Positions 27,437 to 61,154 are shown, numbered from the stretch's first letter. The stretch is 64,000 bases of DNA from an uncultured Methanosarcinaceae archaeon (GCA_963847185.1 CAWJYV010000008.1:288001-352000), one strand, 5' to 3'. The notes: generated from the sequence alone by a model not told the origin. Translations and numbers: made by a program.

Positions 27437-27449
27437 TATTTCTGCCTCC

Positions 27450-41092: not shown

Positions 41093-42082
41093 ATGACGGC
41101 GAATGTCATAGAAGTAAATAATCTTGAGCACAGTTATGGCGATTTAAAAGCTGTAGATAATATCAGTTTCACCGTAAAGGAAGGGGAAATATTTTCATTT
41201 CTAGGTCCGAATGGAGCGGGTAAGAGTACTGTAATAAATATTCTCACTACACTTCGGAAAATCCAGAAAGGTGAGGCTAAAGTTAATGGTTATGATGTGG
41301 CAAAGGAATCAAAGCATGTAAGAAAATCAATAGGTATTGTTTTTCAGATGATGTGCCTTGATTATGAAATGACTGTATGTGAAAATCTTGAGTATCATGG
41401 AAAGATATACTCAATGCCAAAAGAAGAAAGAAGAAAAAGAATAAACGAACTTCTTAAATTAACTGAACTGGAAAGTAAAAGGAATACTCTTGCTAAAGAC
41501 TTAAGTGGGGGCATGAAACGAAGGCTTGAACTTGCAAGAGGATTAATGACAAAACCTGCAGTTCTTTTTCTTGATGAGCCGACGATAGGTTTTGATATCC
41601 AGACCAGATTAAGAATGTGGGAATATTTGAGGGAGATTAAGAGAGAAGGCACAACCATATTCATGACCACTCATTATATGGAGGAAGCCGATCAGCTCAG
41701 TGACAGGATCAGTATTATTGATCATGGGAAAATCATTGTAACCGGGAGTGCATTGGAGTTAAAAAATCAGCTTGGAAAAGACCTTCTTTATCTGGAAACT
41801 AGTGATAATAAAGCTGCTGCAGAAGTTTTGAAGACTATCGAATCGGTAACTGGAGTAACTGATGACTCTAAATCCCTAAGGATAATGCTTGGGATAGATG
41901 TCACACATGTACTACCGAAAATTATAGACAGTATCAGGCAAAAAGGGATAGAGATCATAACAGTAAATATCAAAAAACCTTCTATGGATGATGTTTTCGT
42001 TCATTATACAGGGCATGATTTAAGAGAAGGCGGAACACAGGAAAAGCATGAAGGAGACGAAATTATGGAGGCATTGAAATGA
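41093..42082 (+). CDS. DrrA-like ABC exporter ATP-binding protein
   Basis: GPNGAGKST, LSGGMKRR, FLDEPT, TTHYMEEA, PSMDDVF. Confidence 0.93.
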   Translation: MTANVIEVNNLEHSYGDLKAVDNISFTVKEGEIFSFLGPNGAGKSTVINILTTLRKIQKGEAKVNGYDVAKESKHVRKSIGIVFQMMCLDYEMTVCENLEYHGKIYSMPKEERRKRINELLKLTELESKRNTLAKDLSGGMKRRLELARGLMTKPAVLFLDEPTIGFDIQTRLRMWEYLREIKREGTTIFMTTHYMEEADQLSDRISIIDHGKIIVTGSALELKNQLGKDLLYLETSDNKAAAEVLKTIESVTGVTDDSKSLRIMLGIDVTHVLPKIIDSIRQKGIEIITVNIKKPSMDDVFVHYTGHDLREGGTQEKHEGDEIMEALK

Positions 42083-42915
42083 GCTTTGCGTTCCAAGCGA
42101 TATACTGGAGAGAAATGGTAAAGTTTTTTAGATTCAAATCCGTGCTCCTCAGTTCATTGATTCAGCCTGTGATGTGGCTGGCATTTTTTGGGCTTGCAAT
42201 GTCAGATAGTTTTGATAAATTAACTTCCATGATACCAAGCATTCCCGGTGTTCCAAACGTGGATTATCTTTCCTATATGGGTGCTGGAATAATTGCAATG
42301 GACGTGCTCTTTGCCAGCCTTTTTGGGGGTACTAATCTCTTATTTGATAAGAAATATAGTCTATTAAAAGAGACTATTGCAAGTCCTATCTCACGAGTTA
42401 ATATCATCCTAGGGGTTGGGCTTTCCGCTGTGACGAAATCTTTCATCCAGACGGCTATCATTATCGGATTTGGAGGACTGATTGGTATGAATTTCTTTAA
42501 GGGATACACTCCTGTTCAAACCCTTATATCAGTCGTGGGTATATTTGTACTGGTTGGAATTTTTACATTGGGATTCCTCTTCCTTTCAGGATCAATTGCT
42601 ATTACGGTTGATCAACCCGAAGGAATGCAGTCCATACTTACCTTTATTAGTATGCCATTATTTTTTGTGAGCAATGCACTTTATCCTGTCGATGGATTTC
42701 CTGAATTTATCAGGATCCTGTCGGTGTTTAATCCATTATCTCTCCTGGCAAACGGAGTTCGCTATTTCGCGTTAGGAACTAACTTCTCTGTAATGGGTAC
42801 CCATTACATTTATACGACAGCGGATATTGCCTTTTCATTTGTAGGACTAATAGTCTTTGCTCTCACAATGTTATCCGCCGTACTCTGGAGATTAAATAAA
42901 GTGAATATTTCTTAA
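42079..42915 (+). CDS. ABC-2 type (DrrB-like) permease
   Basis: 6 TM pattern, SNALYP, NPLS; overlaps the ATPase stop. Confidence 0.9.
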   Translation: MSFAFQAIYWREMVKFFRFKSVLLSSLIQPVMWLAFFGLAMSDSFDKLTSMIPSIPGVPNVDYLSYMGAGIIAMDVLFASLFGGTNLLFDKKYSLLKETIASPISRVNIILGVGLSAVTKSFIQTAIIIGFGGLIGMNFFKGYTPVQTLISVVGIFVLVGIFTLGFLFLSGSIAITVDQPEGMQSILTFISMPLFFVSNALYPVDGFPEFIRILSVFNPLSLLANGVRYFALGTNFSVMGTHYIYTTADIAFSFVGLIVFALTMLSAVLWRLNKVNIS

Positions 42916-43215
42916 TTTTCACTTTATTTTCTTCGGTCGTGGACATGAGTTATTGAAAACTGTAAGCATAAGAATCTCTCCATATTTCTCTCAAATACGG
43001 AAGACATACTCGCTTTTCGGAATTGATCAATAACCCGCGTACACAACCTTTTTTCTTAACTCCTGCTTTTATATGTCTTATTTCTGAAGATTACCTGCTT
43101 TACAGGTAGCTTTTTATTTAATATTTTATTTCTCTTTAGGTTCGATTTGTTTTCAGTTTGCTCATTACTAGTGATGATATTTTGATATTTAATTTTTAAA
43201 TAAATTTATTCAGTC

Positions 43216-43266
43216 GGTTGCCCCGCTAGCTTGCTGTGGGATGCGCCAGCGCAACTTTGATTTTTC
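43216..43266. repeat. GC-rich hairpin-forming intergenic element
   Basis: CCCCGCTAGCTTGCTGTGGGATGCGCCAGCGCAAC in AT-rich DNA; single copy in window, family assignment unverified. Confidence 0.3.
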
Positions 43267-44942
43267 AGAATATATTCTTCTAAGTGTTTCTAGAAGGTGG
43301 ATTTGCTGCATGGCTTAATAAAAACGAACTTTTTAAAAACTTTGGCTGCAATTGTATATTTTGAAAAAGTAACTTTTATTACTTTTCTGCATGCTGACTG
43401 AAAAAGACAATGCCAGTGTCATTGAACTTAAAGCCTCAACTCCTAAAGTCTATCATAAATATAAAGAAGCACATATCTCAGGAGCGATCTTTTGGAAATG
43501 CATCTCCACTTTGTAGTGATTAAAATAACAGGACTACCCTGTTTTAAATGGATATAGGCCGCTTCTGAGGTCATCTGCGCTGAATCTGAAGGCAATTCTG
43601 AAGGATAGTTTGAAGAATAGACCTTTTGCCTGAGACAAGCTCAATTGTACTGTTTATGCTATGAATCTAATTATTACAAGCTTTAAAGACACTCCATTGT
43701 GATCAGTTGATACTTTAAGGGACCTATATCCTTGCGCAGACCTAATGTCTGTTTATTTAAGTAATCCCATCTCTTTCGCATGTCTTTTTCTCCCTTTTCT
43801 GAGATCCATTATTATCTTGTCTCAAAGTCAAATTTCTTAAAAGAATATTATCACAGAACTTTGCCATATCTGGAATGCAAACTGGTTTTGACTATGAAAG
43901 GTGTTTATATGTAACTTTTATTAACCTAGCTGTAAGCACCTTTTTTAGATATGATATAAGTCAAGGTCATCTCTCATTATACGGTTGATGTTTTCATGGT
44001 TAATTTTCCGATGTAGAAATGCTTATATTTTGTGCATTAAAGCACGTCTACTATAACACACTGAATCATCTTACCAAACTGCAAAAAAGATATGATGCGA
44101 CACTAGGAGTGTTTTGGGATATAACATCAACCAACTAATAGTGCACGATCAAAGTCAATTATAACTCGAAATAAAGTGCAAAGCGCTTATATCCAGACTT
44201 ATTCTACTTCGCCATTAAAATAGTAATTTAAGGACTGAAATTACTTATGAAAATTATTACCTTCTATATTTTTACTGACACTCTACGTCAATTTTCTAAC
44301 ATATAATTTTCTTAATATATAACCTTATATATTCTCAAAAGCATCTGATTTCAGTGTTCTCTCTTTCTCGTTTTTAATATCTAATTATATCTAATAAAGT
44401 AAAGTTTATTCCTAAAGTACATAATATTATAGGGTTTACTAATGGCTCTCGGTGCGTTTTTATGGTGACGAAATATGGAGCCAAAAGTACAAGACTTTTA
44501 GATTTCGATTTTAAAGTTTCAAGCGTAAACATGATTAAGAAAAATAAATTTAAATAAAGATAAGAATTAATTGGAATGTTAAATTTGAAGGAAAAAAACT
44601 CTTCTCCATGATAGTTGGATTGCACATGATGGAGAAATCCCAGGATCTGCATTTGTTGGATGATTCGAGGTCTGATATTTCGTAAAAAAAAAGATACTTG
44701 CAAAATAAATATATGATCTTCTTTATCTATAATTCTAGGACTATTTTCTGCTTTTTTTAGTAAAATCATTCATTTTAGTACCTATAAATTAATTAAGCTG
44801 ATAGATTGAGTTTATTTTTTCCTTTTATCATTTAATTTTTCCTATTTTGCCAAAAAAAAGGTTAAAGACTTTCTTTTATATACAATTTAAAATAATTTCT
44901 GAAATATTTCTTTATTTTGGAAGTGCTTCCTCTTTTTCCCGA

Positions 44943-44972
44943 TAAATAGTTCCTGATTTTCGGAACTATTTA
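44943..44972. promoter_or_regulatory. Perfect 11-bp inverted repeat upstream of the plus-strand peptide array
   Basis: TAAATAGTTCC-N8-GGAACTATTTA, about 28 bp upstream of TTATATAA. Confidence 0.5.
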
Positions 44973-44990
44973 GTGATAAGTAAAAATTAT

Positions 44991-45036
44991 TCTATATGCT
45001 TTATATAAATTAAAGATATATGTTTATATATACTCA
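44991..45036 (+). promoter_or_regulatory. Putative promoter of the plus-strand peptide array
   Basis: TCTATATGCTTTATATAAATTA...ACTCA, similar to the minus-array upstream region. Confidence 0.45.
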
Positions 45037-45229
45037 TCTGCAAGGAAATATTTAGATATGTTAATCCAAAAAAGTAATACCTCATTGTAATATATTTTTG
45101 GATCTGAATTGTAGTGAGTATCGCATATTTGTGGGAATATAATACATTGGTATAGAAAACATATGTATATGTTTTCTCAAAGGTTGCGAAAAAGGAATAA
45201 TCAGAGATAAAACTTTAGGGAGGGATATA

Positions 45230-45322
45230 ATGTTTGCATATGATTTCTTTGTGAACTTTGCTTTGATTTCAGCATACAAAGCAACAGTCTGTGCACAGAT
45301 TACCCAAGTAATTGTCGGGTAA
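45230..45322 (+). CDS. Family C peptide 1, 30 aa MFAYDFFVNFALISAYKATVCAQITQVIVG
   Basis: SD GGGAGGG; one of 4 paralogs with synonymous divergence. Confidence 0.85.
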   Translation: MFAYDFFVNFALISAYKATVCAQITQVIVG

Positions 45323-45404
45323 ATTAGATGGATAATAAGGAATTCACTCTCGAAGGATTTCCATTGTATTGTAGTGAGAACTATATTGAAAGGGGGAAAA
45401 TCAA

Positions 45405-45497
45405 ATGTTTGCATACGATTTTTTTGTTAATGTGGCTCTGATTAAAGCATACAAAGCAAAAGTTTGTGCAGAGATTACCCAAGTAATTATCGGGTAA
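45405..45497 (+). CDS. Family C peptide 2, 30 aa MFAYDFFVNVALIKAYKAKVCAEITQVIIG
   Basis: SD AGGGGG; paralog. Confidence 0.85.
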   Translation: MFAYDFFVNVALIKAYKAKVCAEITQVIIG

Positions 45498-45577
45498 ATT
45501 GAGACAAATAATAAGGATTCATTCTAGAAGATTTTACCATATTAAAATAGAGAATATACTGAAAGGAGGAAAATTAA

Positions 45578-45679
45578 ATGTATTGGTTTTCACAGGACTT
45601 TTTTGTTAATCTGGCCCTAGTTGACGCATACAAAGCAAAAGTTTACGCAGGAATTACACAGGTAATCGTCGAATTATAA
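45578..45679 (+). CDS. Family C peptide 3, 33 aa MYWFSQDFFVNLALVDAYKAKVYAGITQVIVEL
   Basis: SD AGGAGG; in-frame length variant. Confidence 0.85.
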   Translation: MYWFSQDFFVNLALVDAYKAKVYAGITQVIVEL

Positions 45680-45714
45680 GATTCACGTAAATAAACTTAA
45701 AGGAGGAAAATCAA

Positions 45715-45807
45715 ATGTTTGCATATGATTTCTTTGTCAATATAGCCCTGGTTAAAGCATGCAAGGCACAAGTTTACGCAGGAATTACCCAGGTAATCAT
45801 CGGATAA
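45715..45807 (+). CDS. Family C peptide 4, 30 aa MFAYDFFVNIALVKACKAQVYAGITQVIIG
   Basis: SD AGGAGG; paralog. Confidence 0.85.
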   Translation: MFAYDFFVNIALVKACKAQVYAGITQVIIG

Positions 45808-45984
45808 ATTAAAAAATACAAAAAATTGAATTGAGAGTTGCCTGTTTTACATGCAACTTTTTGGGTCTATAAAACAGTTTCAGTGGTTGCCTCTTAAAGA
45901 TATAATGGACAATCTCCTGGATTCGTTTGTCTTTAATTGGCGACCAATTAATCTATAGAGTTATAAATAAATGGGGGAAAAGTA

Positions 45985-46077: not shown

Positions 46078-46227
46078 TTTAAATTAAAAAGTTGCATGTT
46101 TTGCATGCAATTCTTAGGCCGTAGTAATCTAATAGATATTCTAGATATGGACAAATCTCTGGATTCATTTGTCTTTAACTGATGACCAATTAATCCATAC
46201 GTTTAGAAAGAAATGGAGGGAGAAATA

Positions 46228-46320: not shown

Positions 46321-46329
46321 ATTTAATGA

Positions 46330-46354
46330 AAGTTGCATGTTTTGCATGCAACTT
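46330..46354 (+). terminator. Stem-loop with T-tract after the last plus-array gene
   Basis: AAGTTGCATG-TTTTG-CATGCAACTT followed by TTT. Confidence 0.55.
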
Positions 46355-48060
46355 TTTAGGTCGTAGTAATCTCAATAGCCATATCTTCTAGTATAATGGA
46401 CAAATTCCCTGGATTCATTTATCTAGAGTTGATGGCTATAGATTCTCTATTTACTTTCATGGCTTAGTTTTTTATCTTTCTCTGCGTTCACTAGACTTTT
46501 ATTCAATTAGATACAATTTTAAGGCTGTTATTTTGTCCTCTGGCGTGTTTCAAGATTGTATCAATATAATATTGTACTCGTTAAATATAATGTCTAATGA
46601 AATACAAATAAGAAACTGACATTAAAATGCAGTTAGTTAATTCGTTTTTTTCTTTGCCTATTTGCTGGTCGAAATTTCTCTATTTAATCCTACTATTTAT
46701 ATATACATATTTGCAAAATTAATCATGTCATAGCAGATAACCAAAACGTAAAGTAATGAAAAAATATAATTTTACACTTGAATAGTCTTCTACTTAAAGG
46801 TGAATATCTAAATTGAAATAAATTCAAAAATAGAAATTCAGTATGAGTCAGAAAAGTACTTCTCAAAGTATCCAAAGTTAGTATTAATAGCTTAATTTCA
46901 AATCTTTTAATTATTGTGTGTTTAATTTTTATATTCGAAATATCTATTAATCGAGTTATTTGGATACCTGAGTAGTTGTCAAAAGTTACTTGTGTATATT
47001 TAGGCGTTTTGGCATTTTAATCCAATTTTGGTGATATAATTAACTTCTCAACAATTTATTCTATTCTTATAAATGTCTGAAATTCCTCAGAGAGTTTCCT
47101 CCGATTTGTATGAATTTTATGCGTATAATCTGGATCATAATATTAATCTTTGTGTAACTGAAGTAAAGGAACATATAATCTTCTCCCCTTGTTTAATATA
47201 TCTCTTTTCATTTGTTTTAGTGCTTTCTTCTAATTGATAAATTGGATTTAAGATCCCCACATTATTTTTCTTTTTTTCACAATCGCTATTGCATCTCTAT
47301 TAGATCTTTTTAGTGATGTGTTAATCTTTTTAATCAACTCCTTATTAGATTACTACTCTTCGACATGTTTCTTGAAACTATGGTAAGTTCAAACTGCTAA
47401 ATTTATTTTGAATCAAATCATGGGCATCTTTTTCATTTGAGTCTGATAATTCTAATTGTCTAATCGAAGAGTTTCTATATACAGTTATATCATTAATTTA
47501 TATGTACTGTAGAGAACAATTACTCCTTACAATTTATAGTGTTTAAATATTTGAATACAGAATTCCTGCAGAGAAAAAAATTTTAAAATTTATTTTTTAA
47601 AAAATTAATAAATACATAGAATTTATATGTCTTTTTTGTTCTGCAATAATGTTAATTATGCGAAAATATTCGGGATGAAAAGTAAAGAATTAATGAAGAG
47701 AATCTTTATCTATAATCTAAAGTTAAATAAGAATATAAATTCGAAATATATAGGTGCAAGGGATAGCTCCCTCTATATTTTATGGAGTTATAAAAATTAC
47801 TTTAATTTATATTTCTCTAAGTAAAATTAATATTTTATAGGCTAACCAAGATATGTTCACTCTTTTCGAAGATATTTTAGTCTCGTCTTTTTATATAGTT
47901 CGCATCCCTGTCTAAATGTTGATAGTTTGTATATTCTTGAGGTTTATTTCATAGCCCAAAATCAGTGTGTTGAGAAGCAAACTTTTTAGTTTTTAAAATA
48001 AGTAATTCATTTAATATGTTTTTATTTATATATCTACATATTAATATATGTAGAAATTTA

Positions 48061-48085
48061 AAGTCGCCTGTTTTGCGGGCGACTT
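48061..48085. terminator. Stem-loop downstream of the minus-strand array
   Basis: AAGTCGCCTG-TTTTG-CGGGCGACTT; covarying homolog of 46330-46354. Confidence 0.5.
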
Positions 48086-48182
48086 CTTAATTTCTATTGT
48101 TGCGCATTGTCTATGATTATGAGTTATGCCACAAGCTTATGACTTATTTTATTCTCTCATAAATCTCTCTCATCTTGAGGCT

Positions 48183-48260
48183 TTAATCGCACTGAATGTA
48201 TCTGAACCATGTCTTATCAAAGGTCTTACTTACACAAAGATATTCAAACAGGATGGACAT
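48183..48260 (-). CDS. Family A peptide, 25 aa MSILFEYLCVSKTFDKTWFRYIQCD
   Basis: SD GGAGG; one of 10 paralogs. Confidence 0.85.
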   Translation of the reverse strand: MSILFEYLCVSKTFDKTWFRYIQCD

Positions 48261-48755: not shown

Positions 48756-48833
48756 TTAAAATTCGAAGCAGAACTCTATACCAAGGCCTGCAACAGCTTT
48801 AAATAAGTTGGAAAGGTTAAATACAAATATCAT
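48756..48833 (-). CDS. Family B peptide, 25 aa MIFVFNLSNLFKAVAGLGIEFCFEF
   Basis: SD GGGAGTGGAG; paralog. Confidence 0.82.
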   Translation of the reverse strand: MIFVFNLSNLFKAVAGLGIEFCFEF

Positions 48834-50118: not shown

Positions 50119-50190
50119 TTATTTGAAGTAGATTTGTACACCAAGGCCTGCAAATGCATTAAAGAAGTTTTTAATATTAACGAATAGCAT
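50119..50190 (-). CDS. Divergent family B peptide, 23 aa MLFVNIKNFFNAFAGLGVQIYFK (first gene of the array)
   Basis: SD GGGGAGGGAG; keeps NFFxAxAGLG with conservative substitutions. Confidence 0.8.
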   Translation of the reverse strand: MLFVNIKNFFNAFAGLGVQIYFK

Positions 50191-50405
50191 TTTCTCCCTC
50201 CCCATTTTGCATTTTTCCATGCTTATACATTCTCTTTTTCTATCCTTTTTGTATATTTTCAATAGAAAATACACTTATCAGGAATATTTGTACGAGGCTT
50301 TTTCTTAATCCCCTCGGTCGTTAATACCACTCTGGCAAATATCTTTTTATTATTAGGCGTTAATCTTTCGTTTTGGCCTCAAAAAGCCTAACTTTTGCTC
50401 GCCAG

Positions 50406-50450
50406 TGAGTGTATCTAACTATCTATACTAAATTATATAAGCCCTATAGA
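50406..50450 (-). promoter_or_regulatory. Putative promoter of the minus-strand peptide array
   Basis: Minus strand reads TCTATAGGGCTTATATAATTTA...ACTCA. Confidence 0.45.
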
Positions 50451-51982
50451 ACTAATAATTCTTATAAATAATAGTCTTTGAACTTTTTAGAATATTTATC
50501 TAAGATAAATAATATATATTTATATAAAATTTTCATTTATTTCTACTATTCATAATTTGAATACGTCGTTGACTTCCATTATACAAGGATAAAGATAAAT
50601 TATCCTATTAATTAATCAATATTAAAGTTTAATATTAAATATCATACTTAGATTCTATTTTTTCTTTTATTATCTTTTTTTGTCCATATCAAATACTTTT
50701 TACAGGATATTTACTTATCTCGAGTTACTTCTTTGTCCAACAGATTTCTAAATTTTTTGCCAATATTTTGCGAATTTTGGTTTTTTCTTTACTATTTTCT
50801 TTCCAATTAAATATCTTAGAGTGATAATTTTAGATAGTGAATATATCGCTAAAATATCAGTTTACTTTCTATGGGTAGGTTATGAATAAATCCCTGTTTT
50901 GTTCTACCAAACTATTTTGATAAAATATATTGCCTTATGTCATGAAAAGTGTCTCTTATTTTTGATTCTCGGTACTCAGTAGTATTTTTATCCAAGTTAC
51001 TTTTCTTCTCTTTAATCTCTTTATCTTTTATTTTTGCTGTTGAAAAACCATATGTTTTTTGTCAGGAATACTTTCATAGGTGCCCTTTCTTCAGATGGAT
51101 TTTAAAAAAGAATCTTGCAGGGAGTTCAGTAACTCAAAAACTTTGACTTAAAAACAGTAAAAAAGGGAACTCTTCTCCTCTTTCTAAACACTTGGGTAAA
51201 AGCATAATACTTATTTTACAGATCGAAAGTAGTTGCCATTACAGATCTCTAATTTATTTTCTTTTTTCTTACAAAAAGGAATTTATTTGGTGGGGAATTT
51301 CTCCAAAAAGGCAGTGTAGCGAAAGTTCTGTAAAATCACAAATCTCAAGAAGTTCCTTGGACGAAAATACCGTTTCAGAAGAATCTAATTTCATATTGTG
51401 AGAAAAAATTGACTTCATATTTACAGCAAATTTGCGACACTGCTTTTGATATTTCAGGTCATATAATAGTGTGTTCTTAAATTTATTCATCCTATAAAAT
51501 ATAAGTCAATATATATCATTTTCCTAACACGAATGTGTCTACATTACTAACCAGCAAAAAAGAAAAAAATATAATCAGTAATCGAAAATTAATGAAAATT
51601 AATTCATAGACGTTTATTCATTAGATATTAAGAAAGATAACAGTTTAAGTTGGTTCTCTCATTTGATGAATTGTTACTAATATAATTCTTAAAAATTAAG
51701 CTTTATTTCGTTCTATTAATCTTTTTTAGCGTTATCATGATCCTTTTTTTTATATAATGTAATTTTTATGTGTTTTTTGATTAAATGAGCTTCAATTATG
51801 CATTTATCGAGTAAATAAACATCTAAATTCTTTAGTTTATACTCATATTTCGGATAACTCTTTAAAAAAATTTAGAGAGAATAGGTTAAAATGGATTTTC
51901 TTACAATAAGAAGAAGTAAAGAGAATTGAGATTATCCTTATAATTTTTTTCTCATTATATCTCAGTTACTTTGGGGGGGAAT

Positions 51983-52690
51983 ATGGATATAATCAACGAC
52001 AGTTTACCTGAGGGTGGATTTCCTATTGTCGAACTTTCCAACGTCAGGAAGAGTTATTTACTTGGAAATCTGGAAGTTCCGGTTCTCTCGGATATTAACC
52101 TTAAAATAGGTGTGGGAGAGTTTCTCGCTATTATGGGTCCATCGGGCTCAGGGAAAAGTACACTTATGAACCTTATAGGTTGCCTTGACCGACCTACTGA
52201 AGGTCAGGTGCTTATAAGAGGAAGCGATCTCCAGAGAATGTCAGACAAAGAACTTGCCCGCTTAAGGGGGCTTGAAATAGGTTTTGTTTTTCAGAATTTT
52301 AATCTGGTTCCGCGCCTGACGGCTCTTGAGAACGTCTTGCTCCCTACTTTTGCAAATTCGAGAATTAGTACTGATCCAGTAAAGCGTGCAAAAGAGCTCC
52401 TTGAAACTATGGGGCTGCAGGATCGTATGCACCATAGGCCAGGGGAACTTTCAGGAGGCCAGGCTCAAAGAGTCTCAATAGCAAGGGCGCTTATTAATGA
52501 CCCTGCTATTCTTCTTGCGGATGAACCGACCGGAAATCTTGACTCCAGGACCGGAGCTGAGATTCTTAGAATACTTATGAATCTGAATACCGAAGGAAGA
52601 ACGATAATAATAGTTACACACGACTCTGAAATTGCTAAGTATGCTGATCGAGTCGTTCTGGTGAAGGATGGAATAATCCAGTTTAATTAA
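51983..52690 (+). CDS. LolD/MacB-type ABC ATP-binding protein (module 1)
   Basis: GPSGSGKST, IGFVFQNFNL, LSGGQ, LADEPTGNLD. Confidence 0.93.
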   Translation: MDIINDSLPEGGFPIVELSNVRKSYLLGNLEVPVLSDINLKIGVGEFLAIMGPSGSGKSTLMNLIGCLDRPTEGQVLIRGSDLQRMSDKELARLRGLEIGFVFQNFNLVPRLTALENVLLPTFANSRISTDPVKRAKELLETMGLQDRMHHRPGELSGGQAQRVSIARALINDPAILLADEPTGNLDSRTGAEILRILMNLNTEGRTIIIVTHDSEIAKYADRVVLVKDGIIQFN

Positions 52691-52702: not shown

Positions 52703-53950
52703 ATGGAAATAGTTAAAAAGAATGTTGTTGCTTTTTTTTCTTTACTTTTGGTTTTCTCTTCACTTGCAATTCCTGCTTCTGCAGATGTTGGAAGTGCAAG
52801 CCTTAAAATTACAATAATCGAAACAAATCCCTATCCTGCAAAGATAGGGGAATACTTAAACCTTACATTACAGGTGGAAAATGTTGGGCAGGATAAAGCT
52901 GGTAATGTTGACATAGAAGTTATTCCTAAGTATCCTTTCTCTCTTGATCCTGGGATGAATCCCATTCAAAACGTTGGGGCACTCAACCCAGGCAGGACTG
53001 CAACGAAAGAATTCTATCTTTTTGTGGACAAAAACGCTCAGAAAGGAATCCGCTCCCTTGACATCCGGGCAAGAGCCGATAAAGGCAGTCCATGGAGCGA
53101 GAAAAGCTTTGATATAAGGGTCGGTACTCAAACATATAATAGTAAAGGTACAGTTGAACTTGAGAATGTTGTTTCGAACCCAGATATTTTCATGCCTGGA
53201 GATCGGGGCACTGTTACAGTAACTCTCAAGAATACCGCAACCACTCCGACTGTCACCATTGATGAGAGTAGTTATGATACCAATGCCAGAATTCAGTCAG
53301 CCGTTTTAGAGCCATTATCTGATGAGATAATCGTACTTGATTCTCCATATGAAGAAATGGGTATTATAGGGCCTGGAGATAGTATCAAATTAACTTTCAA
53401 CGTTAGGGTTGCAGAGAATGCCATGGATGGGAATCACAACCTTGAATTAGCAATAGAGGGCAATTCTTTCGATTACAATAGCAAAAAGAATATTCCTCTT
53501 AAGGTCGACTCTTCAAATATAAAGGTGATCCCTTCAAAAGCACTTCAGCTTGTCAATGGACAATCTACAATCGAATTTGATGTGGCAAATACCCATCCTA
53601 ACGAGCTTAACTCAGTAAGCATAAAACCTGAAGCTGAGGGTGTGAAATTTTATCCTGCAGAATATTTCATAGGGCCAATGGATCCGGATGAGCTTTTTAC
53701 TGTCGAATTTGATGCTGTAAAAGATAATTCTTCGGGTTTCACGGAAGATTCAGGTAAAATAAACATGAGCCTTACTGCAAATTATAACAATGGAATTAAC
53801 AGGCACGCAAATGTCATCGGGAATCTTAATCTTGCAGACGATTCCGAATCCTCCGAATCAAATTCAACATCCGTAATAGCAGGTGGACTTGTTATTATTT
53901 CTGTTCCTGCGGCCTTTCTGTATTACAGAAGAAAAAAAGCAGCGAGATAA
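52703..53950 (+). CDS. COG1361-like extracellular protein with signal peptide and C-terminal membrane anchor (module 1)
   Basis: Signal peptide ending ASA, Ig-like VENVG / VTLKN segments, C-terminal TM followed by RRKK. Confidence 0.8.
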   Translation: MEIVKKNVVAFFSLLLVFSSLAIPASADVGSASLKITIIETNPYPAKIGEYLNLTLQVENVGQDKAGNVDIEVIPKYPFSLDPGMNPIQNVGALNPGRTATKEFYLFVDKNAQKGIRSLDIRARADKGSPWSEKSFDIRVGTQTYNSKGTVELENVVSNPDIFMPGDRGTVTVTLKNTATTPTVTIDESSYDTNARIQSAVLEPLSDEIIVLDSPYEEMGIIGPGDSIKLTFNVRVAENAMDGNHNLELAIEGNSFDYNSKKNIPLKVDSSNIKVIPSKALQLVNGQSTIEFDVANTHPNELNSVSIKPEAEGVKFYPAEYFIGPMDPDELFTVEFDAVKDNSSGFTEDSGKINMSLTANYNNGINRHANVIGNLNLADDSESSESNSTSVIAGGLVIISVPAAFLYYRRKKAAR

Positions 53951-53981: not shown

Positions 53982-55193
53982 ATGATCAGATTTGCGCAGG
54001 CAACTCGAATTGCTTTGGGGAGTATAGGAAGTGCTAAGCTTAGGTCATCACTTACTACACTTGGAATAGTGATTGGCATAGCTGCAGTAGTTGTTAATGC
54101 ATCTCTTGGTGCCAGTTTCAATCAGTTTTTTACTAATGAAATTTCTTCTGTTGGCTCAAACTTTATTATCACGTACAGCAATCAACCCAATATTTTCTTC
54201 GACAACGAGTACAATTTAATGAAAAGTACCCAGGGGATTACCGGTGTGTCTCCCAGAAAATCGATGACTGGAGAGCTAACCTATCTTTCGGAAACTAATA
54301 CCGTAAACATTGCAGGGGTTAATGAGGATTTTCAGGAAATTCAGGGCTTAAAGATGGAAAGAGGCAGTTTCCTGACAAATAAGGATATTAACTCTGCAGT
54401 TTTAGGGTACAACCTGGCAAATGATGAGTTTAGCAGGGATATATCTCACAGAAGCACCGTGGAAATTGCTTTTCGACAAGAAAACGGTACCGTTGTAACG
54501 AAGACATTTAAGGTAAAAGGGATTCTGCAAAATTCCAAGCCAACTGTTATTAGTGAAGATAGCGATTATGATTTGACCGTCTTTATCCCAATTTCTACTA
54601 TGAATGAAATGATAGGAGAAGAGGATTATGGAACTTTTCTTGCAATGACGGATAGTCCTGATAAAGTCCGTAATGTCGCAGAAAAAGTGGATGATAGATT
54701 AGCACGGAATTTTGGGATCTCAGAAAGGGTTGATGATGAAGATTCAAAACCTTATACTGTTTTTAATCAGGCAGATGTGCTTGAGGAAACTGGGAAATTG
54801 GGCGATTCATTAAGCTCTTTCCTTCTGGTCCTTGCCTCAATTTCACTTTTTGTTGGCTCCATAGGGATTATGAACATTATGCTTGTAACAGTTACGGAAC
54901 GTACAAGAGAAATTGGTATAATGAAATCTGTGGGATACAGCAACTCTAATATCCTCTCTCTTTTCCTGCTGGAGTCTATAATGGTCAGTTTCCTTGGAGG
55001 AGTTGTAGGTACAACTATTGGGGGTTTAGGGGCCTATATCCTTGAAAGTGCTCTTAAACTTCCTCCAGTATTTCCTTTTAAATTGATTGAAATAGGGGTG
55101 ATAGTTTCGATTCTTGTGGGGGTAACTGCTGGTTTGTATCCTGCAAAAAAGGCAGCTCATATGAATCCTGTAGATGCTTTAAGGTACGAGTGA
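53982..55193 (+). CDS. MacB/FtsX-type ABC permease (module 1)
   Basis: RSSLTTLGIVIG, GIMNIMLVTVTERTREIG, PVDALRYE. Confidence 0.93.
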   Translation: MIRFAQATRIALGSIGSAKLRSSLTTLGIVIGIAAVVVNASLGASFNQFFTNEISSVGSNFIITYSNQPNIFFDNEYNLMKSTQGITGVSPRKSMTGELTYLSETNTVNIAGVNEDFQEIQGLKMERGSFLTNKDINSAVLGYNLANDEFSRDISHRSTVEIAFRQENGTVVTKTFKVKGILQNSKPTVISEDSDYDLTVFIPISTMNEMIGEEDYGTFLAMTDSPDKVRNVAEKVDDRLARNFGISERVDDEDSKPYTVFNQADVLEETGKLGDSLSSFLLVLASISLFVGSIGIMNIMLVTVTERTREIGIMKSVGYSNSNILSLFLLESIMVSFLGGVVGTTIGGLGAYILESALKLPPVFPFKLIEIGVIVSILVGVTAGLYPAKKAAHMNPVDALRYE

Positions 55194-55378: not shown

Positions 55379-55684
55379 GATAGTTTGACAGAAAGTTAAT
55401 ATTTACATTTTTCAGCATGTTGAAAAATATCACTGACGATCTGATTGACAATTTGGCCACTTTTACTATTCCTCTGACTTTAGCCGAAAAGGGTTTTTAT
55501 GGAGCTTGTTAAAGAGACTGAAGTTAGAAGAAATCAAAACCTTGGAAGTATGGTGATCAGAACGCAACAAAGGAGGATTCAAAGACGGGAACTAAAAAAC
55601 ATAAGAATCAGACGTTCCATAATGTACGGATAATTCAGATACAGATAACTTAGTTCTAATATGAAAAACAATAGAGGGGTAGAC

Positions 55685-56572
55685 ATGGAAATTAAAATGG
55701 CCACTGACAAAGCATCTGCTCCCGGCAATTCTGCTCCCAAAACAGAAACCGATTCGATACCTGAGGGGAAAATGGCTCATAATGAAAGCCAATTTGTCTC
55801 AAACGAAGATTCAAGTGATGAGCCCTTTAAATATGAATTATACCGCACAAAAAATCTGCATAGAAGGATGGAGGGAAGGGATAAAACAAGAGCTTCGGTT
55901 ATTGAAGTTATCAATGTCAAAAAAAGTTATTTCCTTGGAGATACGGAAGTTCCGATTCTTCGAGATATTAACTTAGAAGTGTTTGAAGGGGAATTTCTTG
56001 CTATCATGGGTCCTTCTGGCTCTGGAAAGAGTACATTAATGAATCTCATTGGTTTTCTTGACAGGCCTACAGAAGGTAAAATTATGATTAAAGGCCTCGA
56101 TGTCAATAAGCTGTCTGATAAGGAAGTTGCTAGACTCAGGGGATTGGAAATAGGTTTCGTGTTCCAGATTTTCAACCTAATCCCACGGCTTACCGCTCTT
56201 GAAAATGTTGAGTTGCCTACTTATGCAAATGTGAGAAATGGGGTTGATGTTCGCAAAAGGGCAAAGGAGCTTCTAGAACAGGTTGGCCTGGATGACCGTA
56301 TGCATCATAAGCCAGGTGAGCTTTCAGGTGGACAATCTCAAAGGGTTGCAATCGCCCGAGCTCTAATTAATGATCCTGCAATTCTTCTTGCGGACGAACC
56401 CACAGGAAATCTTGACTCAAAAACAGGATGTGAAATCCTGAACATGTTCACAAAACTCAACGAAGATGGCAGAACCATTGTAATGATTACCCACGATCCA
56501 GAAATTGCAAAATATGCAGACAGAATAGTGCTCGTAAAAGATGGAATCATTCAGAATAATCCCAATAGTTAA
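55685..56572 (+). CDS. LolD/MacB-type ABC ATP-binding protein with polar N-terminal extension (module 2)
   Basis: Same motifs as 51983; SD GAGGGG before 55685 (alternative start 55661). Confidence 0.92.
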   Translation: MEIKMATDKASAPGNSAPKTETDSIPEGKMAHNESQFVSNEDSSDEPFKYELYRTKNLHRRMEGRDKTRASVIEVINVKKSYFLGDTEVPILRDINLEVFEGEFLAIMGPSGSGKSTLMNLIGFLDRPTEGKIMIKGLDVNKLSDKEVARLRGLEIGFVFQIFNLIPRLTALENVELPTYANVRNGVDVRKRAKELLEQVGLDDRMHHKPGELSGGQSQRVAIARALINDPAILLADEPTGNLDSKTGCEILNMFTKLNEDGRTIVMITHDPEIAKYADRIVLVKDGIIQNNPNS

Positions 56573-56608: not shown

Positions 56609-57865
56609 ATGACAAAAATGAAAAACCGAATTATTCCTTTTGTGCTGTCTTTGCTTTTAGTTTCCTCCATTTTTGCAGTTCCTACTTCTGCAGCTGTTGG
56701 AAGTTCAAGCCTTAAAGTCACAATAGTCGAAACAAATCCCTATCCTGCAAAGATCGGAGAATACCTGAACCTTACGCTTCAGGTAGAAAATATTGGAGGG
56801 GACAGGGCTGACAATGTTGACATAGAAATCGTTCCTAAATATCCTTTCTCTCTTGACTCAGGGATAGACCCTGTCCAGAACATCGGAGCTCTCAATCCAG
56901 GCAGGACTGCAACAAAAGAATTCTACCTTTTCGTGGACAAAAACACTCAGAAAGGAATCCGCTCCCTTGATATCCGAACAAGAGCTGATAAAAGCAGTCC
57001 ATGGAGCGAAAAAAGCTTTGATATAAGGATTGGTACTGAAACGTTTGACAGCAAAGGTACAGCTGAACTTCAAGAAGTTGTTTCCAATCCCGATGTTTTC
57101 ATGCCCGGAGACCGGGGGACTGTTACAGTAACTCTCAAGAATACCGCAGCTAATCCGACTGTCACCATTGATGGGAGCGACTATGATACCAATGCCAGAA
57201 TTCAATCAGCTGTTTTAAAGCCTCTATCTGATGGGATAACTGTTCTAGATTCCCCTTATGAAGAGATGGGTCTACTGGGGCCTGGAGATAGTATCAAATT
57301 AACTTTCAACGTTAGAGTTGCAGATGATTCCATGGATGGAACTCACAATCTTGAACTTTTAATAGAGGGAAACTCTTTCGATTACAATAGCAAAAAGAAT
57401 ATTCCTCTCAAGGTCGATTCTTCAAATGTAAAGGTGATACCCTCAAAGACACTTCAACTTGTCAATGGGAAATCTACAATCGAATTTGATGTGGCAAATA
57501 CCCATCCTAACGAGCTTAGCTCAGTAAGCATAAAACCTGAAGCAGATGGAGTGAAATTTTATCCTGCAGAATATTTCATAGGGCCAATGGATCCGGATGA
57601 GCTTTTTACAATTGAATTTGATGCTGTGGCAGATAACTCCTCAGATGCAGATTTGGATTCCTCTAAGCCTATAAACCTGACGCTTTCTGCAAGTTACAGT
57701 AATGGAATCAATAAACATGAAAATACTGTAAGCAATATGTATATTCAAGATATTGAGGAAAATCAGGGAGGAAGTTCTGGTATAATTATTGCAGGCCTGC
57801 TAACTGCTGTCTTTGTTGCTGCAGGTATATTGATTTACAAAAAGAGAATTAAAAACAAAAAATAA
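56609..57865 (+). CDS. COG1361-like extracellular protein (module 2)
   Basis: Close paralog of 52703-53950 with long identical stretches. Confidence 0.8.
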   Translation: MTKMKNRIIPFVLSLLLVSSIFAVPTSAAVGSSSLKVTIVETNPYPAKIGEYLNLTLQVENIGGDRADNVDIEIVPKYPFSLDSGIDPVQNIGALNPGRTATKEFYLFVDKNTQKGIRSLDIRTRADKSSPWSEKSFDIRIGTETFDSKGTAELQEVVSNPDVFMPGDRGTVTVTLKNTAANPTVTIDGSDYDTNARIQSAVLKPLSDGITVLDSPYEEMGLLGPGDSIKLTFNVRVADDSMDGTHNLELLIEGNSFDYNSKKNIPLKVDSSNVKVIPSKTLQLVNGKSTIEFDVANTHPNELSSVSIKPEADGVKFYPAEYFIGPMDPDELFTIEFDAVADNSSDADLDSSKPINLTLSASYSNGINKHENTVSNMYIQDIEENQGGSSGIIIAGLLTAVFVAAGILIYKKRIKNKK

Positions 57866-58149: not shown

Positions 58150-59478
58150 TTAATTAATCGGAATATTAAAGGTAAACGTGCTGCCTTTTCCTATCTCGGA
58201 GTCCACCCAGATTTTTCCCCGGTGAAGATCCACAAAGTTTTTAGCAATATACAGTCCAAGTCCCGTGCCTCCGTATCCTCTTGCTGTGGAAGAATCTGCC
58301 TGGGTAAAAGGCATAAATATCTTTTCGTAATCTTTGTTTGATAGTCCTATCCCGTTATCCGACACTTTTATCTCAAGCCTTTCTTCCTTTTTAGAGGCAG
58401 TAACAGTAACCTTCCCTTTTTCAGGGGTAAATTTTATAGCATTGCTCATTAGATTATGCAGAATCTGCCTCAGTTTTGTTCTGTCAGCCCTGACATTTCC
58501 AAGAGAAGGATCAACTTTTAATTCTACAGTAATTTTCTTATTTGAAGCCGAAGAGAAAAGGCTCATTCTTACCTCTCCGATAAGGCTAGCAATATCTATC
58601 TCTTCATAATTTAGATTTTTTTCTCCAGTTTCGAGCCTTGAAATGTCGAGCAGATTGTCAATTATTTCCATAAGATTTTTCCCGCTAATGAGGATATTAT
58701 TGACATATTTTGATTGCCTGGTATTCAGAGGTCCGAAAGCTCCTTCTAGCAGTAAATCCGAAAAACCTATCACTGAATTGAGGGGAGTTCTGAGTTCATG
58801 GCTCATGTTCATTATGAAGTTATTTTTGGCTCTGTTTGCAGTTTCTGCGTCCTTTTTAGCTTTAAATAGGATATTTTCCAGTTCTTTCTGTCCTTCCAGC
58901 TGTCCAAATTGTTTCCAGCCTCCTTTTCCTTTGACAAAAACACTGTTTTCCTCCGTTAGATCAGACAACATTCTACCTGAGAGTTCTTCAAGAGGGAGGG
59001 TGCAGAGAAATGTGAGATTTTTATTGTTCTCAAAAGAAGTCGTTTCAATAACTTTTCTGCATGTTTCAAGATAGATATTAAGAGAAAGTCCTGATTTTCT
59101 GAGGTCAAAATTTGTTCTTAGTCCTGTAAATCCTCCAGAAAGGGTTTTTTCATATCCTTTACTTATAAGTTCTTTTACTGCTGAAGTAAGGAGGATAGTA
59201 TTCTCCGGGAGAGGTTCAGCTGACAGAATTTCCAACTGAGAAGAAACAGAACTGTGCCCTATGTCAAGTCCTATCTGTTTAAGCTCATCTTTCACTTTTT
59301 CAGTGATTAGCTCCTCAGGAGAAACCCATAAGCAATATTCCCCTTTTTCAATTCCTTGCTTAAAATAAATACTAAGTAATTCTGTCAACTCTTCTACATC
59401 ATTATATGCGGCAGAGATCTGGAAACTTTGCGACATTCTTGAAAAAAGCTCGGGGTCTTTGTCATTATTTTTTTTCAT
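58150..59478 (-). CDS. Sensor histidine kinase with MEDS-like N-terminal domain
   Basis: YFKQGIEKGEYCLWV; H-box MSHELRTPL, NAIKF, DNGIG, GTGLGL. Confidence 0.9.
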   Translation of the reverse strand: MKKNNDKDPELFSRMSQSFQISAAYNDVEELTELLSIYFKQGIEKGEYCLWVSPEELITEKVKDELKQIGLDIGHSSVSSQLEILSAEPLPENTILLTSAVKELISKGYEKTLSGGFTGLRTNFDLRKSGLSLNIYLETCRKVIETTSFENNKNLTFLCTLPLEELSGRMLSDLTEENSVFVKGKGGWKQFGQLEGQKELENILFKAKKDAETANRAKNNFIMNMSHELRTPLNSVIGFSDLLLEGAFGPLNTRQSKYVNNILISGKNLMEIIDNLLDISRLETGEKNLNYEEIDIASLIGEVRMSLFSSASNKKITVELKVDPSLGNVRADRTKLRQILHNLMSNAIKFTPEKGKVTVTASKKEERLEIKVSDNGIGLSNKDYEKIFMPFTQADSSTARGYGGTGLGLYIAKNFVDLHRGKIWVDSEIGKGSTFTFNIPIN

Positions 59479-59939
59479 ATTTCCCCCTCCATGTGTTTGC
59501 AATAATGCGTTTTCAATAGCTCACAACCGGGTTTCATACATAGGCTTGCACTTTTTCTATGATATATCACTAGCATATATAAGAAATATACCAATTTATA
59601 CTGTTTGTACAGTTCTTCAGGATTTTAACAAATTAGTCATACAAACTATCAAATGGTGAGTATCTAATAAAATTCTATTATTAGATCTGCTTAATCATTA
59701 TTTTTCTCTAAAGGTTTAGAAATCCATTAAAAGTGGCTATAATATCAGGCTATCACAAAAGTTCTATGATTATTTTTTACCGTTATTTATTATATCTTTG
59801 AGATTAATATTTATTGGGGTTTTTGGGAACTTTCTGTGTCTATCTTAGTTTTACGCAGTTTACGCGCTAAAGCCTGAAGTCCAATTTACACAGGAGCTCA
59901 AGCAGTTTTAGAGCATTCATATGTATAACAGATGATTTT

Positions 59940-61154
59940 ATGCTAAACTTAAGACAAGCTATCAGGATCTCTCTTGGAAGCATATGGAGCTCAAAGCTCC
60001 GTTCAGGTCTGACCACTCTTGGCATTATCATAGGAATTGCTGCAGTAGTTGCAAACCTCTCTTTAGGGGAAAGCTTTAACGTTTATTTTGAAGATGAGAT
60101 CAATGCCCAGGGATCCAATTTTATTATTATATATAGCCAGGAGCCAAATATTTTCTATACCAACGAACTGCAAATTATCGATAAAACTCCAGGTATTGCT
60201 GCAGTTTCTCCAGTAAAACAACAACGTGGGTCAGTAGGCTACTTTTCTCAAAACAAAAATCTTGATATTGCTGGAGTGACCGGAGATTATAAGGATACAG
60301 CCAATATAGTTATGAGATCCGGCAGCTTCATATCAGATCAGGATGCTTTTTCTGCAGCCATAGGGTCCAAGGTAGCTGGTGATAAATTCAAAAGGAACAT
60401 TTCCACCCGCAGTTCAATAGATATTACTTTCCGGCTTGAAGAAAACAGATCAGTTACTAAAAAATTCAAAGTCAAAGGAATAATTGAAAGTCCGAATATC
60501 TCTTTCGCAGGGGGGGGAATTGATCGGGACGTAAGCGTCTTCGTCCCTGTTTCAACTCTTAATCAGATGCTTGAAGAAAATGATTTCTCGGCATTCTTTG
60601 CCATGACTAATAGTGTCGAAGACGTGGAAACTGTCTCAGACAAGGTAAATAAAAGGCTTGCTCGGAACTTTGGGGTCTCTTCAAGGAATATCGATGACGA
60701 AGACACAAAACCCTTCCGGATTTTTAACCAGGCTGATATCCTTAAGCAAACTACCCAGCTTGCCGATACTCTCCGAAATTTCCTTGTTGCTGTTGCTCTG
60801 ATCTCCTTGCTGGTAGGATCTATAGGGATAATGAATATTATGCTTGTGACAGTTACTGAACGTACCCGGGAAATAGGAATCATGAAAGCCCTTGGTTTTT
60901 CCAGTATGGATATCCTCCTGCTCTTTCTGGCAGAATCAATTATCATCAGCCTTTTTGGCGGCCTCCTGGGGGTGGGGGTAGGAATAGGAGGAGCTTATGT
61001 AGCCACAACCATCCTGAAGCTTCCCTTTGTTTTTTCGCATTTCACCTTTGAGGTAGGACTCTTGGTTGCGATATTTGTGGGAGTTACAGCAGGAGTTTAT
61101 CCCGCAAGCAAGGCTGCAAAAATGGCTCCTGTGGATGCTTTGAGGTATGAGTAA
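59940..61154 (+). CDS. MacB/FtsX-type ABC permease (module 2)
   Basis: Paralog of 53982-55193. Confidence 0.93.
   Translation: MLNLRQAIRISLGSIWSSKLRSGLTTLGIIIGIAAVVANLSLGESFNVYFEDEINAQGSNFIIIYSQEPNIFYTNELQIIDKTPGIAAVSPVKQQRGSVGYFSQNKNLDIAGVTGDYKDTANIVMRSGSFISDQDAFSAAIGSKVAGDKFKRNISTRSSIDITFRLEENRSVTKKFKVKGIIESPNISFAGGGIDRDVSVFVPVSTLNQMLEENDFSAFFAMTNSVEDVETVSDKVNKRLARNFGVSSRNIDDEDTKPFRIFNQADILKQTTQLADTLRNFLVAVALISLLVGSIGIMNIMLVTVTERTREIGIMKALGFSSMDILLLFLAESIIISLFGGLLGVGVGIGGAYVATTILKLPFVFSHFTFEVGLLVAIFVGVTAGVYPASKAAKMAPVDALRYE

Follow-up and report, generated by a model that had tools for sequence, protein, structure and literature searches.

Tandem micro-protein genes beside a MacB-type transporter module: a conserved and apparently undescribed locus in Methanosarcina

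Organization of the micro-gene locus

A 64,000-nt stretch of the genome of an uncultured Methanosarcinaceae archaeon (GCA_963847185.1, CAWJYV010000008.1:288001-352000; hereafter the window) contains an apparent gene desert of about 9 kb (42916-51982), inside which no open reading frame (ORF) has a Pfam match. The desert holds 21 micro-genes encoding peptides of 23-35 amino acids (aa) that fall into five families, A (ten genes), B (four), C (four), D (two) and E (one). The A and C genes form an array on the minus strand (48183-50190) and the B and D genes a convergent array on the plus strand (45230-46320), and repeat analysis indicated growth of the former, which contains four copies of a 133-nt unit carrying one A gene and three of a 414-nt unit (A-A-C). 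Since the locus adjoins a MacB-type ATP-binding cassette (ABC) transporter, here called module 1, in most of the relatives examined, it is read as a conserved peptide system, and sequence comparison points to a real, conserved and apparently undescribed micro-protein locus.

The original prediction had recognized 20 of these genes, in four families of 23-33 aa (A to D), laid out as two convergent arrays in a 9-kb desert, and all of them are present at the place given there. The single-copy gene E was overlooked in it; it came to light through the syntenic site in relatives, where divergent peptides occur in the same order together with a conserved gene of 32-44 aa. All coordinates of single features are collected in Table 1.

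Evidence that the micro-ORFs are genes

Every one of the 21 micro-genes, E included, begins with ATG and carries a GGAG/GAGG/GGGG-type motif 4-15 nt 5' of the start, which extends to the fifth family the purine-rich Shine-Dalgarno sites already noted for the other 20; the background of this ribosome-binding motif in the genome is 3741 of 43895 small ATG ORFs (8.5%). Variable alignment columns are most frequent at the third codon position, with counts for positions 1/2/3 of 4/3/14 in A, 7/5/13 in B and 0/2/5 in D. Comparison of 157 within-genome pairs of A-like genes from 21 loci gave a proportion of synonymous differences (pS) of 0.264 and of nonsynonymous differences (pN) of 0.073 (pN/pS 0.28), and pN/pS lay between 0.13 and 0.53 in eight of nine close species pairs and was 1.27 in one pair of very low divergence. 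Across 34 diverged A-like genes the reading frame, the length of 24-26 residues and the ribosome-binding site are retained, the 26-column alignment showing a single one-residue indel near the C-terminus and an invariant start Met and Tyr7. Between genomes the pN of A-like genes is 0.38, which amounts to fast turnover between species. On the strength of the third-position excess, the pN/pS ratio and a ribosome-binding site in 21/21 genes against the 8.5% background, the micro-ORFs are taken as coding genes under purifying selection, their coding status being established by these comparisons short of direct detection.

The opposite view, in which the ORFs are incidental and the repeats non-coding, being either genes for RNA or structural elements of the DNA, could appeal to the open frames that also exist on the strand opposite A and to a conserved stem in the leader of the array. 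It is scarcely credible in the face of the codon-position pattern, the pN/pS ratio and the constancy of frame, length and ribosome-binding site across the 34 A-like genes, and neither Rfam at its gathering threshold nor a tRNA scan returned a match.

Distribution of the families and satellite cassettes

A broad A-like profile matched 35 of the 58 other genomes of the genus and none of the 225 genomes outside it (0/118 in the other 15 genera of the family and 0/107 in five other families of the order). This profile undercounts, because it misses two variants at locus L053, one A-like of 29 aa and one C-like of 32 aa. An apparent near-uniqueness of A, found in 1/36 other same-genus genomes with a narrow profile, was an artefact of a profile built only from the window's copies and was overturned by the broad one. 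The E-like profile matched 37/58 other same-genus genomes at E<=3e-5, with weak matches in other genera, several of them containing stops. Profile-profile comparison aligned A-like and E-like peptides without a gap over residues 1-24 (P=1.6e-4, probability 51%), on which basis E is probably a distant paralogue of A with a C-terminal tail; the same method related neither C to D nor A to B.

The whole-genome census of the window's genome amounts to 13 A, 6 C, 1 E, 6 B and 3 D genes. Some of these stand in satellite cassettes on contigs C4, C10 and C1 (C-A-A, a lone C, a lone A and B-B-D), and genome G024 likewise has satellites on its contigs C5, C108 and C93 (A-A-A-C, A-C-A and A-C-A). The neighbours of the satellites include no enzyme modifying ribosomally synthesized and post-translationally modified peptides (RiPPs).

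For B and D, rarity stands. The narrow B profile matched 1/58 other same-genus genomes, and B and D are carried by this genome, by G009 and by a single metagenome organism (L076/L077; a B match also lies on L078). The two families occur together in every source, namely both cassette copies of this genome, G009 (five B and one D, syntenic with the window) and L076/L077, whose gene order B, D, E, A/C is that of the window. Among 1.84 billion representative proteins, B had three true 30-aa matches, the cluster members of which are named only "hypothetical protein", and it had no match in viral contigs. Window positions 44000-46750 are about 90% identical to contig C1:30797-32999 and represent a duplicated B/D cassette, at the left edge of which a repeat of about 150 nt was found by blastn at ten further sites on seven contigs with 70-88% identity (two on C8, three on C7, two on C9, and one each on C10, C4 and C2). 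We read B/D as a younger duplicated insertion that carries the promoter type of the A/C/E cassettes.

Small hydrophobic products, dispersed satellite copies, a duplicated B/D cassette bordered by a dispersed repeat and the patchy distribution of individual variants are what would be expected of selfish cassettes that encode toxins of a type I-like kind, restrain them through antisense RNA or through the transporter as an immunity factor, and spread as satellites. Such an origin is quite improbable, however, as up to 10-17 copies stand together in operons whose strong ribosome-binding sites and strong TATA box fit high expression, the core locus is inherited vertically at a single place in the chromosome and B is without a match in viral contigs; a conserved antisense promoter or gene was likewise not seen, although no systematic search was made.

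Gene order around module 1

Module 1 consists of an ATPase (ATPase1), a CARDB-domain protein (CARDB1) and a permease (MacB1). For 20 E-centred loci, 9 kb on either side of E were fetched, and E is present in all of them by construction because the loci were chosen through E matches. ATPase1-CARDB1-MacB1 lies beside E in 18 of these 20 loci, and the DrrA/ABC-2 pair occupies the other side in only 10, which weakens the link to the DrrAB-like exporter. With the addition of L032 and L033, two loci selected through flank genes, 20 loci with module 1 were available, and in all 20 the order C-like, A-like, E-like was found on the strand opposite ATPase1 and upstream of it. At each locus the series opens with one to three C-like genes, continues with two to seven of the A-like kind and, beyond a gap of about 0.9 kb, ends in the E-like gene. 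The first C-like start lies 813-939 nt from the start of ATPase1 in 18/20 loci when a ribosome-binding-site filter is applied, and two C-like genes outside this filter were recovered by a six-frame search. In G185, E is located elsewhere, yet 17 A-like copies remain beside module 1.

Thirty loci recorded as Methanosarcina formed a second sample, each with 3 kb or more of sequence upstream of a CARDB1 relative. Arrays were detected by profile in 19 of them, L090 has a C-like gene at the contig edge, and L110 and L112 carry, at the same position, arrays of aromatic genes of 20-21 aa. In seven of the remaining loci the CARDB1 match has at most 68% identity, and the two that were mapped (L114 and L119) proved to be the paralogue belonging to module 2, the second module of the window. 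The arrangement reaches a neighbouring genus of the GTDB, g18, where G070 and G073 are the two genomes with a module-1 orthologue: both have five or six tandem Phe-rich genes of 19-27 aa that diverge from ATPase1 at the same position, and these peptides have no significant similarity to the C-like profile (E=52). Gene order in two GTDB genera speaks for a tie between the locus and module 1, but the tie has exceptions and is not backed by shared regulation.

Promoters and leaders

Two short non-coding islands are the best-conserved DNA of the desert. The one about 300-550 nt upstream of E was matched by blastn in 21 loci, of which 17 were aligned, and the one about 200-320 nt upstream of the first C-like gene in 13 loci, of which 11 were aligned. 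In both, a TTATATA box comes after the element TAAGGAG-N6-TTCT(A/T)T. A relaxed form of this pattern also occurs 5' of the B/D cassette (at window position 44977, in the contig C1 copy and in L076/L077), upstream of four satellites, and upstream of the variant array and E of L053; the B/D element is one arm of an inverted repeat, I1, whose other arm is 47476-47529. The relaxed pattern has 24 sites in this genome against 10 in a reversed-genome control, and the exact pattern has 10 matches in five other genomes against 0 in the backwards control, four of the ten being array promoters and two preceding Gly/Cys/Trp-rich small ORFs. By these comparisons all peptide cassettes, B/D and satellites included, have a common, unusual promoter type. 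The element is not exclusive to micro-genes, since one relaxed-pattern site precedes a methionine aminopeptidase gene.

Small ORFs of odd composition lie 150-400 nt 3' of the same promoter type, Gly/Phe/Cys-rich ones of 33-86 aa and Trp/Gly/Cys/Arg-rich ones of 28-48 aa, each with a ribosome-binding site and far from any transporter (Table 1). Two of them were tested and gave no Pfam or NCBIfam match. The Gly/Phe-rich ones begin with a sequence reminiscent of the C-terminal tail found in some E-like peptides.

In the 5' leader of the C/A array (50330-50430, minus strand) a conserved 8-bp long-range stem closes a domain of about 65 nt, with little covariation and no Rfam match. A different pair of complementary segments seems to replace this stem in the leaders of the window and of G024. 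The A sub-arrays are split by about 190 nt without a micro-gene at 49370-49556, and the ends of this stretch look complementary by eye.

A nitrogen control of the NrpR kind was considered and dropped, as GGAR-N6-TTCY occurs 14 times in the window against 14.3 expected and the palindrome at the glnA promoter differs. That perfect palindrome, GGATTAA-N4-TTAATCC, precedes a TTTATATA box of the glutamine synthetase promoter by about 16 nt (38480-38520, minus strand) and is probably a regulator site distinct from the cassette element. A sigma-70 promoter scan returned fewer sites than shuffled sequences and is not meaningful for an archaeon.

Flanking genes

The flanks had been described as a DrrA/ABC-2 pair on the left and, on the right, two sets of ATPase, surface protein and MacB-type permease with a histidine kinase, and Pfam and NCBIfam assignments agree, the surface proteins being of the CARDB type and the kinase of MEDS-HisKA-HATPase architecture. 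The kinase has the same position in L090, L100 and L114. In both modules the permeases combine PF12704 with PF02687 and the ATPases are separate LolD-like proteins, an organization of the MacB type. The top scores of the module ATPases were to MacB, LolD, darobactin-export and bacteriocin-export models, all under the cutoffs of those models; on the DarD model ATPase1 and ATPase2 score 226-231 bits and on the Lcn972-ABC model 208-209 bits, below the curated cutoffs. No HlyD-family adaptor domain was found in either module, and the CARDB protein sits between ATPase and permease. An exporter of the double-glycine/C39 kind was not seen either, the ATPases being of the ABC_tran type only and the permeases MacB_PCD + FtsX or ABC2_membrane. 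As had been predicted, no protease or RiPP-modifying enzyme is present among the ORFs scanned with Pfam (11 across 26.5-39.9 kb, two desert ORFs of 131 aa and 73 aa, and 11 flank genes at 41.0-64.0 kb); an enzyme encoded elsewhere is possible.

Further to the left, 26534-36019 holds pieces of an archaeal-type glutamate synthase (GATase, Glu_synthase, GXGXG), an FrhB-like protein and an M24 peptidase, and glnA follows at 36961-38304, a neighbourhood of nitrogen assimilation and F420-related functions. In relatives where DrrAB is lacking, the far side of the locus carries a conserved acidic small protein of 49-57 aa whose C-terminal block contains the motif THKPE (L042, L045, L046, L047 and L050, about 6.6-7.4 kb from ATPase1); it occurs twice in the window's genome (contig C1:64229-64378 and contig C6:15492-15641).

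Table 1. Features of the micro-gene locus (window coordinates unless a contig or locus is named)
Feature	Position	Strand	Basis and remarks
DrrA-type ABC ATPase	41063..42082	+	Pfam ABC_tran + DrrA1-3_C; TIGR01188 342 bits (cutoff 312); start codon may be ORF-internal
ABC-2 (DrrB-like) permease	42079..42915	+	Pfam ABC2_membrane; TIGR01247 136 bits, under cutoff
Dispersed repeat copy of ~150 nt, left end of B/D cassette	44000..44150	.	blastn
Promoter element of B/D cassette, TAAGTA-N7-TTCTAT-N4-TTTATATA	44977..45007	+	genome regex scan
B1, 30 aa	45230..45322	+	ORF + ribosome-binding site
B2, 30 aa	45405..45497	+	ORF + ribosome-binding site
B3, 33 aa	45578..45679	+	ORF + ribosome-binding site
B4, 30 aa	45715..45807	+	ORF + ribosome-binding site
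Hairpin followed by T run, 3' of B genes	45832..45867	+	repeat family D6, sequence read; absent from terminator scan list
D1, 30 aa	45985..46077	+	ORF + ribosome-binding site
Palindromic hairpin 3' of D1	46092..46110	.	terminator scan (minus-strand entry; stem palindromic)
D2, 30 aa	46228..46320	+	ORF + ribosome-binding site
Palindromic hairpin 3' of D2, TTTTT next on plus strand	46329..46355	.	terminator scan, sequence read
E, 35 aa, fifth family, single-copy	47067..47174	-	ORF, profiles; conserved in genus
Promoter island of E (TAAGGAG-N6-TTCT + TATA box)	47467..47563	-	blastn, alignment
GC-rich hairpin closing A/C array	48061..48085	.	terminator scan
A10, 25 aa, last gene of array	48183..48260	-	ORF + ribosome-binding site
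C4 gene, 25 aa	48342..48419	-	ORF + ribosome-binding site
A9, 24 aa	48465..48539	-	ORF + ribosome-binding site
A8, 24 aa	48597..48671	-	ORF + ribosome-binding site
C3 gene, 25 aa from start codon with ribosome-binding site	48756..48833	-	ORF
A7, 24 aa	48878..48952	-	ORF + ribosome-binding site
A6, 24 aa	49011..49085	-	ORF + ribosome-binding site
C2 gene, 25 aa	49170..49247	-	ORF + ribosome-binding site
A5, 24 aa	49294..49368	-	ORF + ribosome-binding site
A4, 25 aa	49556..49633	-	ORF + ribosome-binding site
A3, 24 aa	49692..49766	-	ORF + ribosome-binding site
A2, 24 aa	49825..49899	-	ORF + ribosome-binding site
A1, 25 aa	49958..50035	-	ORF + ribosome-binding site
C1 gene, first gene of array, 23 aa from start codon with ribosome-binding site	50119..50190	-	ORF
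Promoter island and start of 5' leader of C/A array; core element 50434-50464	50403..50494	-	blastn, alignment, regex
Module 1 LolD/MacB-type ABC ATPase, divergent from array	51983..52690	+	Pfam, NCBIfam
Module 1 CARDB-domain surface protein	52703..53950	+	Pfam
Module 1 MacB_PCD + FtsX permease	53982..55193	+	Pfam, NCBIfam
Module 2 ABC ATPase	55661..56572	+	Pfam, NCBIfam
Module 2 CARDB-domain protein	56609..57865	+	Pfam
MEDS-HisKA-HATPase histidine kinase, inside module 2	58150..59502	-	Pfam
Module 2 MacB_PCD + FtsX permease	59940..61154	+	Pfam, NCBIfam
Odd-composition ORF, window's genome	contig C1:35001-35660	+	
Odd-composition ORF, window's genome	contig C1:37936-38367	-	
Odd-composition ORF, window's genome	contig C4:45010	+	
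Odd-composition ORF, window's genome	contig C4:107297	-	
Odd-composition ORF, window's genome	contig C4:108538	-	
Odd-composition ORF, window's genome	contig C10:709987	+	
Odd-composition ORFs, G004	L083/L085		
Phe-rich micro-gene array, G070	L056 3741-4624	-	
Phe-rich micro-gene array, G073	L057 2146-2760	+	

Properties of the peptides

The peptides are rich in aromatic residues (32% in A-like and 30% in C-like, against 8.6% in the genome's long ORFs) and hydrophobic, with grand average of hydropathy (GRAVY) values of 0.61 for A-like and 1.23 for C-like; their mean net charge is +0.4 for A-like, -0.9 for C-like and +3.5 for E. AlphaFold2 predicted a single helix over residues 2-33 of E, with a predicted local distance difference test (pLDDT) score of 79, and only a central helix of 10 residues in a C-like variant (pLDDT 71). 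Within E, Gly26 is invariant, the residue before it is variable, and so is the C-terminal tail. The prediction that the peptides lack a leader or signal sequence agrees with the sequences of A, B, C and D, which show no N-terminal extension or cleavage motif.

Database searches gave no relatives of known kind: A, B, C and D matched no Pfam family at E<=1, A-E no NCBIfam model at E<=10, profiles of A-like, B, E-like and C-like peptides found nothing under E=0.4 in the PDB, and the ESM Atlas held no usable match for E and a best one of 0.76 for B. The arrays are not described in the literature found, including the text of PMC11456600 and PMC12704099, and the supplementary lists of small ORFs of PMC11456600 could hold homologues. 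The system thus still appears undescribed, as the original prediction had supposed.

A candidate route from array to cell surface

The reading that we tentatively favour, at a confidence somewhat short of probable, is that leaderless hydrophobic peptides are handled by the MacB/CARDB module and act at the surface or outside the cell. Its grounds are the coding status of the micro-ORFs, their conservation, the gene order, the shared promoters and the adjacency to module 1. In this scheme a core that is old within the genus consists of a promoter and a long structured leader, followed by one or more C-like genes and 2-10 tandem A-like genes, and a second look-alike promoter would drive the single E gene. 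The peptides would partition into the cytoplasmic membrane, from which module 1, with its LolD-like ATPase, MacB permease and a CARDB protein in the adaptor's place, would extract them for delivery to the surface of the cell or into the medium. Roles that they may then play, between cells or within the envelope, are those of an archaeocin, a kin-discrimination agent, a signal or a component of the matrix. A bolder version, which we hold to be doubtful, would see in Methanosarcina a co-regulated, lineage-specific micro-peptide arsenal in which the aromatic A/C/E families, B/D and the Gly/Cys/Phe-rich and Trp/Arg-rich proteins share one promoter type and the aromatic families are expelled by MacB-CARDB for antagonism or recognition.

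A number of observations weigh against handling and export by module 1. No hydrophobic moment, helical or strand, exceeded that of shuffled sequences (mean z of the helical moment 0.09 for A-like, -0.36 for C-like, -0.34 for B, -0.02 for D and -0.11 for E), and most membrane-active peptides that cells secrete are cationic, which A and C are not. The CARDB/MacB module is family-wide, being present in 157/176 genomes and 16/16 genera, and no aromatic-rich micro-ORFs were seen at 17 loci of g17, g20, g23 and g25, which are without a module-1 orthologue, or at g18 loci of the module-2 type. All synteny comes from one family of close relatives, in which adjacent genes may be inherited or vanish together, and the joint presence or absence of array and module is not independent evidence because the two are adjacent. 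Module 1 is present in L100 with no micro-ORF in the 5.3 kb upstream, and at L053, which has its variant array and E, the flank genes of the window are all missing from the surrounding 9 kb. The cassette promoter element does not occur in the 130 conserved nt upstream of ATPase1, and the satellites adjoin surface proteins, a regulator or sensor kinases, not ABC exporters.

The last three of these points, together with the occurrence of the same promoter type before Gly/Phe/Cys-rich and Trp/Gly/Cys/Arg-rich ORFs far from transporters, in G004 as well, would fit a transporter-independent regulon of odd-composition small proteins, governed by whichever factor reads the shared promoter element and perhaps concerned with stress, metal or redox conditions or acting as aggregating or storage proteins, for which the adjacency to module 1 would be inherited gene order. 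That explanation is considered unlikely, as array and module 1 remain divergent neighbours although the other flank changes between loci (DrrAB 10/20), the G185 arrays stay with module 1 though E has moved, and in the second GTDB genus unrecognisably different Phe-rich arrays hold the same position relative to ATPase1. The exporter link of the original prediction therefore survives in part: module 1 is kept in relatives and in a second GTDB genus, whereas the DrrAB pair is found in only half of the E-centred loci, satellites stand apart from exporters, and array and module are uncoupled in L100 and L053.

The peptides might also remain in the membrane of the producer as non-exported micro-proteins, serving as subunits or regulators of MacB/CARDB or of another complex, or as membrane modifiers. 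Small regulators of complexes that are bound to the membrane are reported for M. mazei (PMC12774963, PMC13370731), and hydrophobicity (GRAVY 0.6-1.3), the single long helix predicted for E, the absence of a signal peptide or leader and the adjacency to module 1 would all suit such a role. Still, we regard it as open to considerable doubt: 2-17 copies with strong ribosome-binding sites speak for a bulk product rather than a stoichiometric subunit, A and C, with 24-25 aa and charges in mid-sequence, would make poor transmembrane helices, and the fast turnover between species would be unusual for a subunit docking on a conserved complex.

Comparison with bacterial leaderless peptide systems

The layout of the locus resembles that of bacterial leaderless peptide systems; membership in those families is not claimed, since the amphipathic or cationic character that marks them was not found here. 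Phenol-soluble modulins of staphylococci are tandemly encoded peptides of 20-45 residues without leader or signal, with the ABC exporter Pmt nearby. They share with the present peptides tandem leaderless short genes in high copy and, in the window, an adjoining ABC-2/DrrAB-like pair. The analogy, which the original prediction had drawn, fails because the peptides are not amphipathic, an amphipathic helix being a defining property of modulins; in addition, there is no Pfam match, the conserved neighbour is a MacB-type module with the ABC-2 pair in only 10/20 loci, and the host, an archaeon, lacks a comparable outer wall polymer. Leaderless multi-peptide bacteriocins such as aureocin A70 and enterocin L50 are related peptides encoded in an operon with a dedicated ABC transporter. 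Related, apparently leaderless peptides of 24-35 residues, an ABC transporter in the locus and fast divergence are common to both, but A and C are near-neutral or acidic and not Trp/Lys-rich, identical genes are repeated up to 10-17 times, and no solved structure matched.

The Pep27-Vex123-VncRS system of Streptococcus pneumoniae, the role of which is contested, combines a small leaderless peptide, a MacB/FtsX-type transporter and a two-component system. The window likewise has leaderless small peptide genes, a MacB/FtsX-type transporter and a histidine kinase; it differs in having arrays of several families, a CARDB protein in the adaptor's place, a kinase with a cytoplasmic MEDS domain and no response regulator among the domain-scanned genes of the locus. 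SHP/Rgg pheromones are small hydrophobic peptides exported by the ABC-2 transporter PptAB. Their short hydrophobic, unprocessed-looking precursors and the ABC-2 exporter nearby in some genomes are points of likeness, and the variable tail of E after its invariant Gly could in principle be released; on the other side, no Rgg-type regulator is adjacent, the copy number is far higher and no processing protease was identified. The ATPase model scores and the MacB_PCD + FtsX permeases recall the darobactin DarBCD and lactococcin 972 ABC exporters, yet the scores lie below cutoffs, there is no radical-SAM or other modifying enzyme, and CARDB stands where an HlyD-type adaptor would be.

Significance

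Methanosarcina is one of the main models of methanogenesis and of small-protein biology in archaea, and to our knowledge almost nothing has been established about its social and antagonistic behaviour. The locus, conserved, multi-copy and apparently strongly expressed, would offer a concrete handle on peptide interactions or envelope biology in methanogens. It would also supply a candidate substrate of the ATPase-CARDB-MacB modules that are widespread in archaea, and add dozens of genes that standard annotation overlooks because they are only 21-35 codons long. If the arsenal reading were true, methanogens would have their first archaeocin-like or peptide-communication system, and archaea a route for the export of leaderless peptides without an outer-membrane channel.

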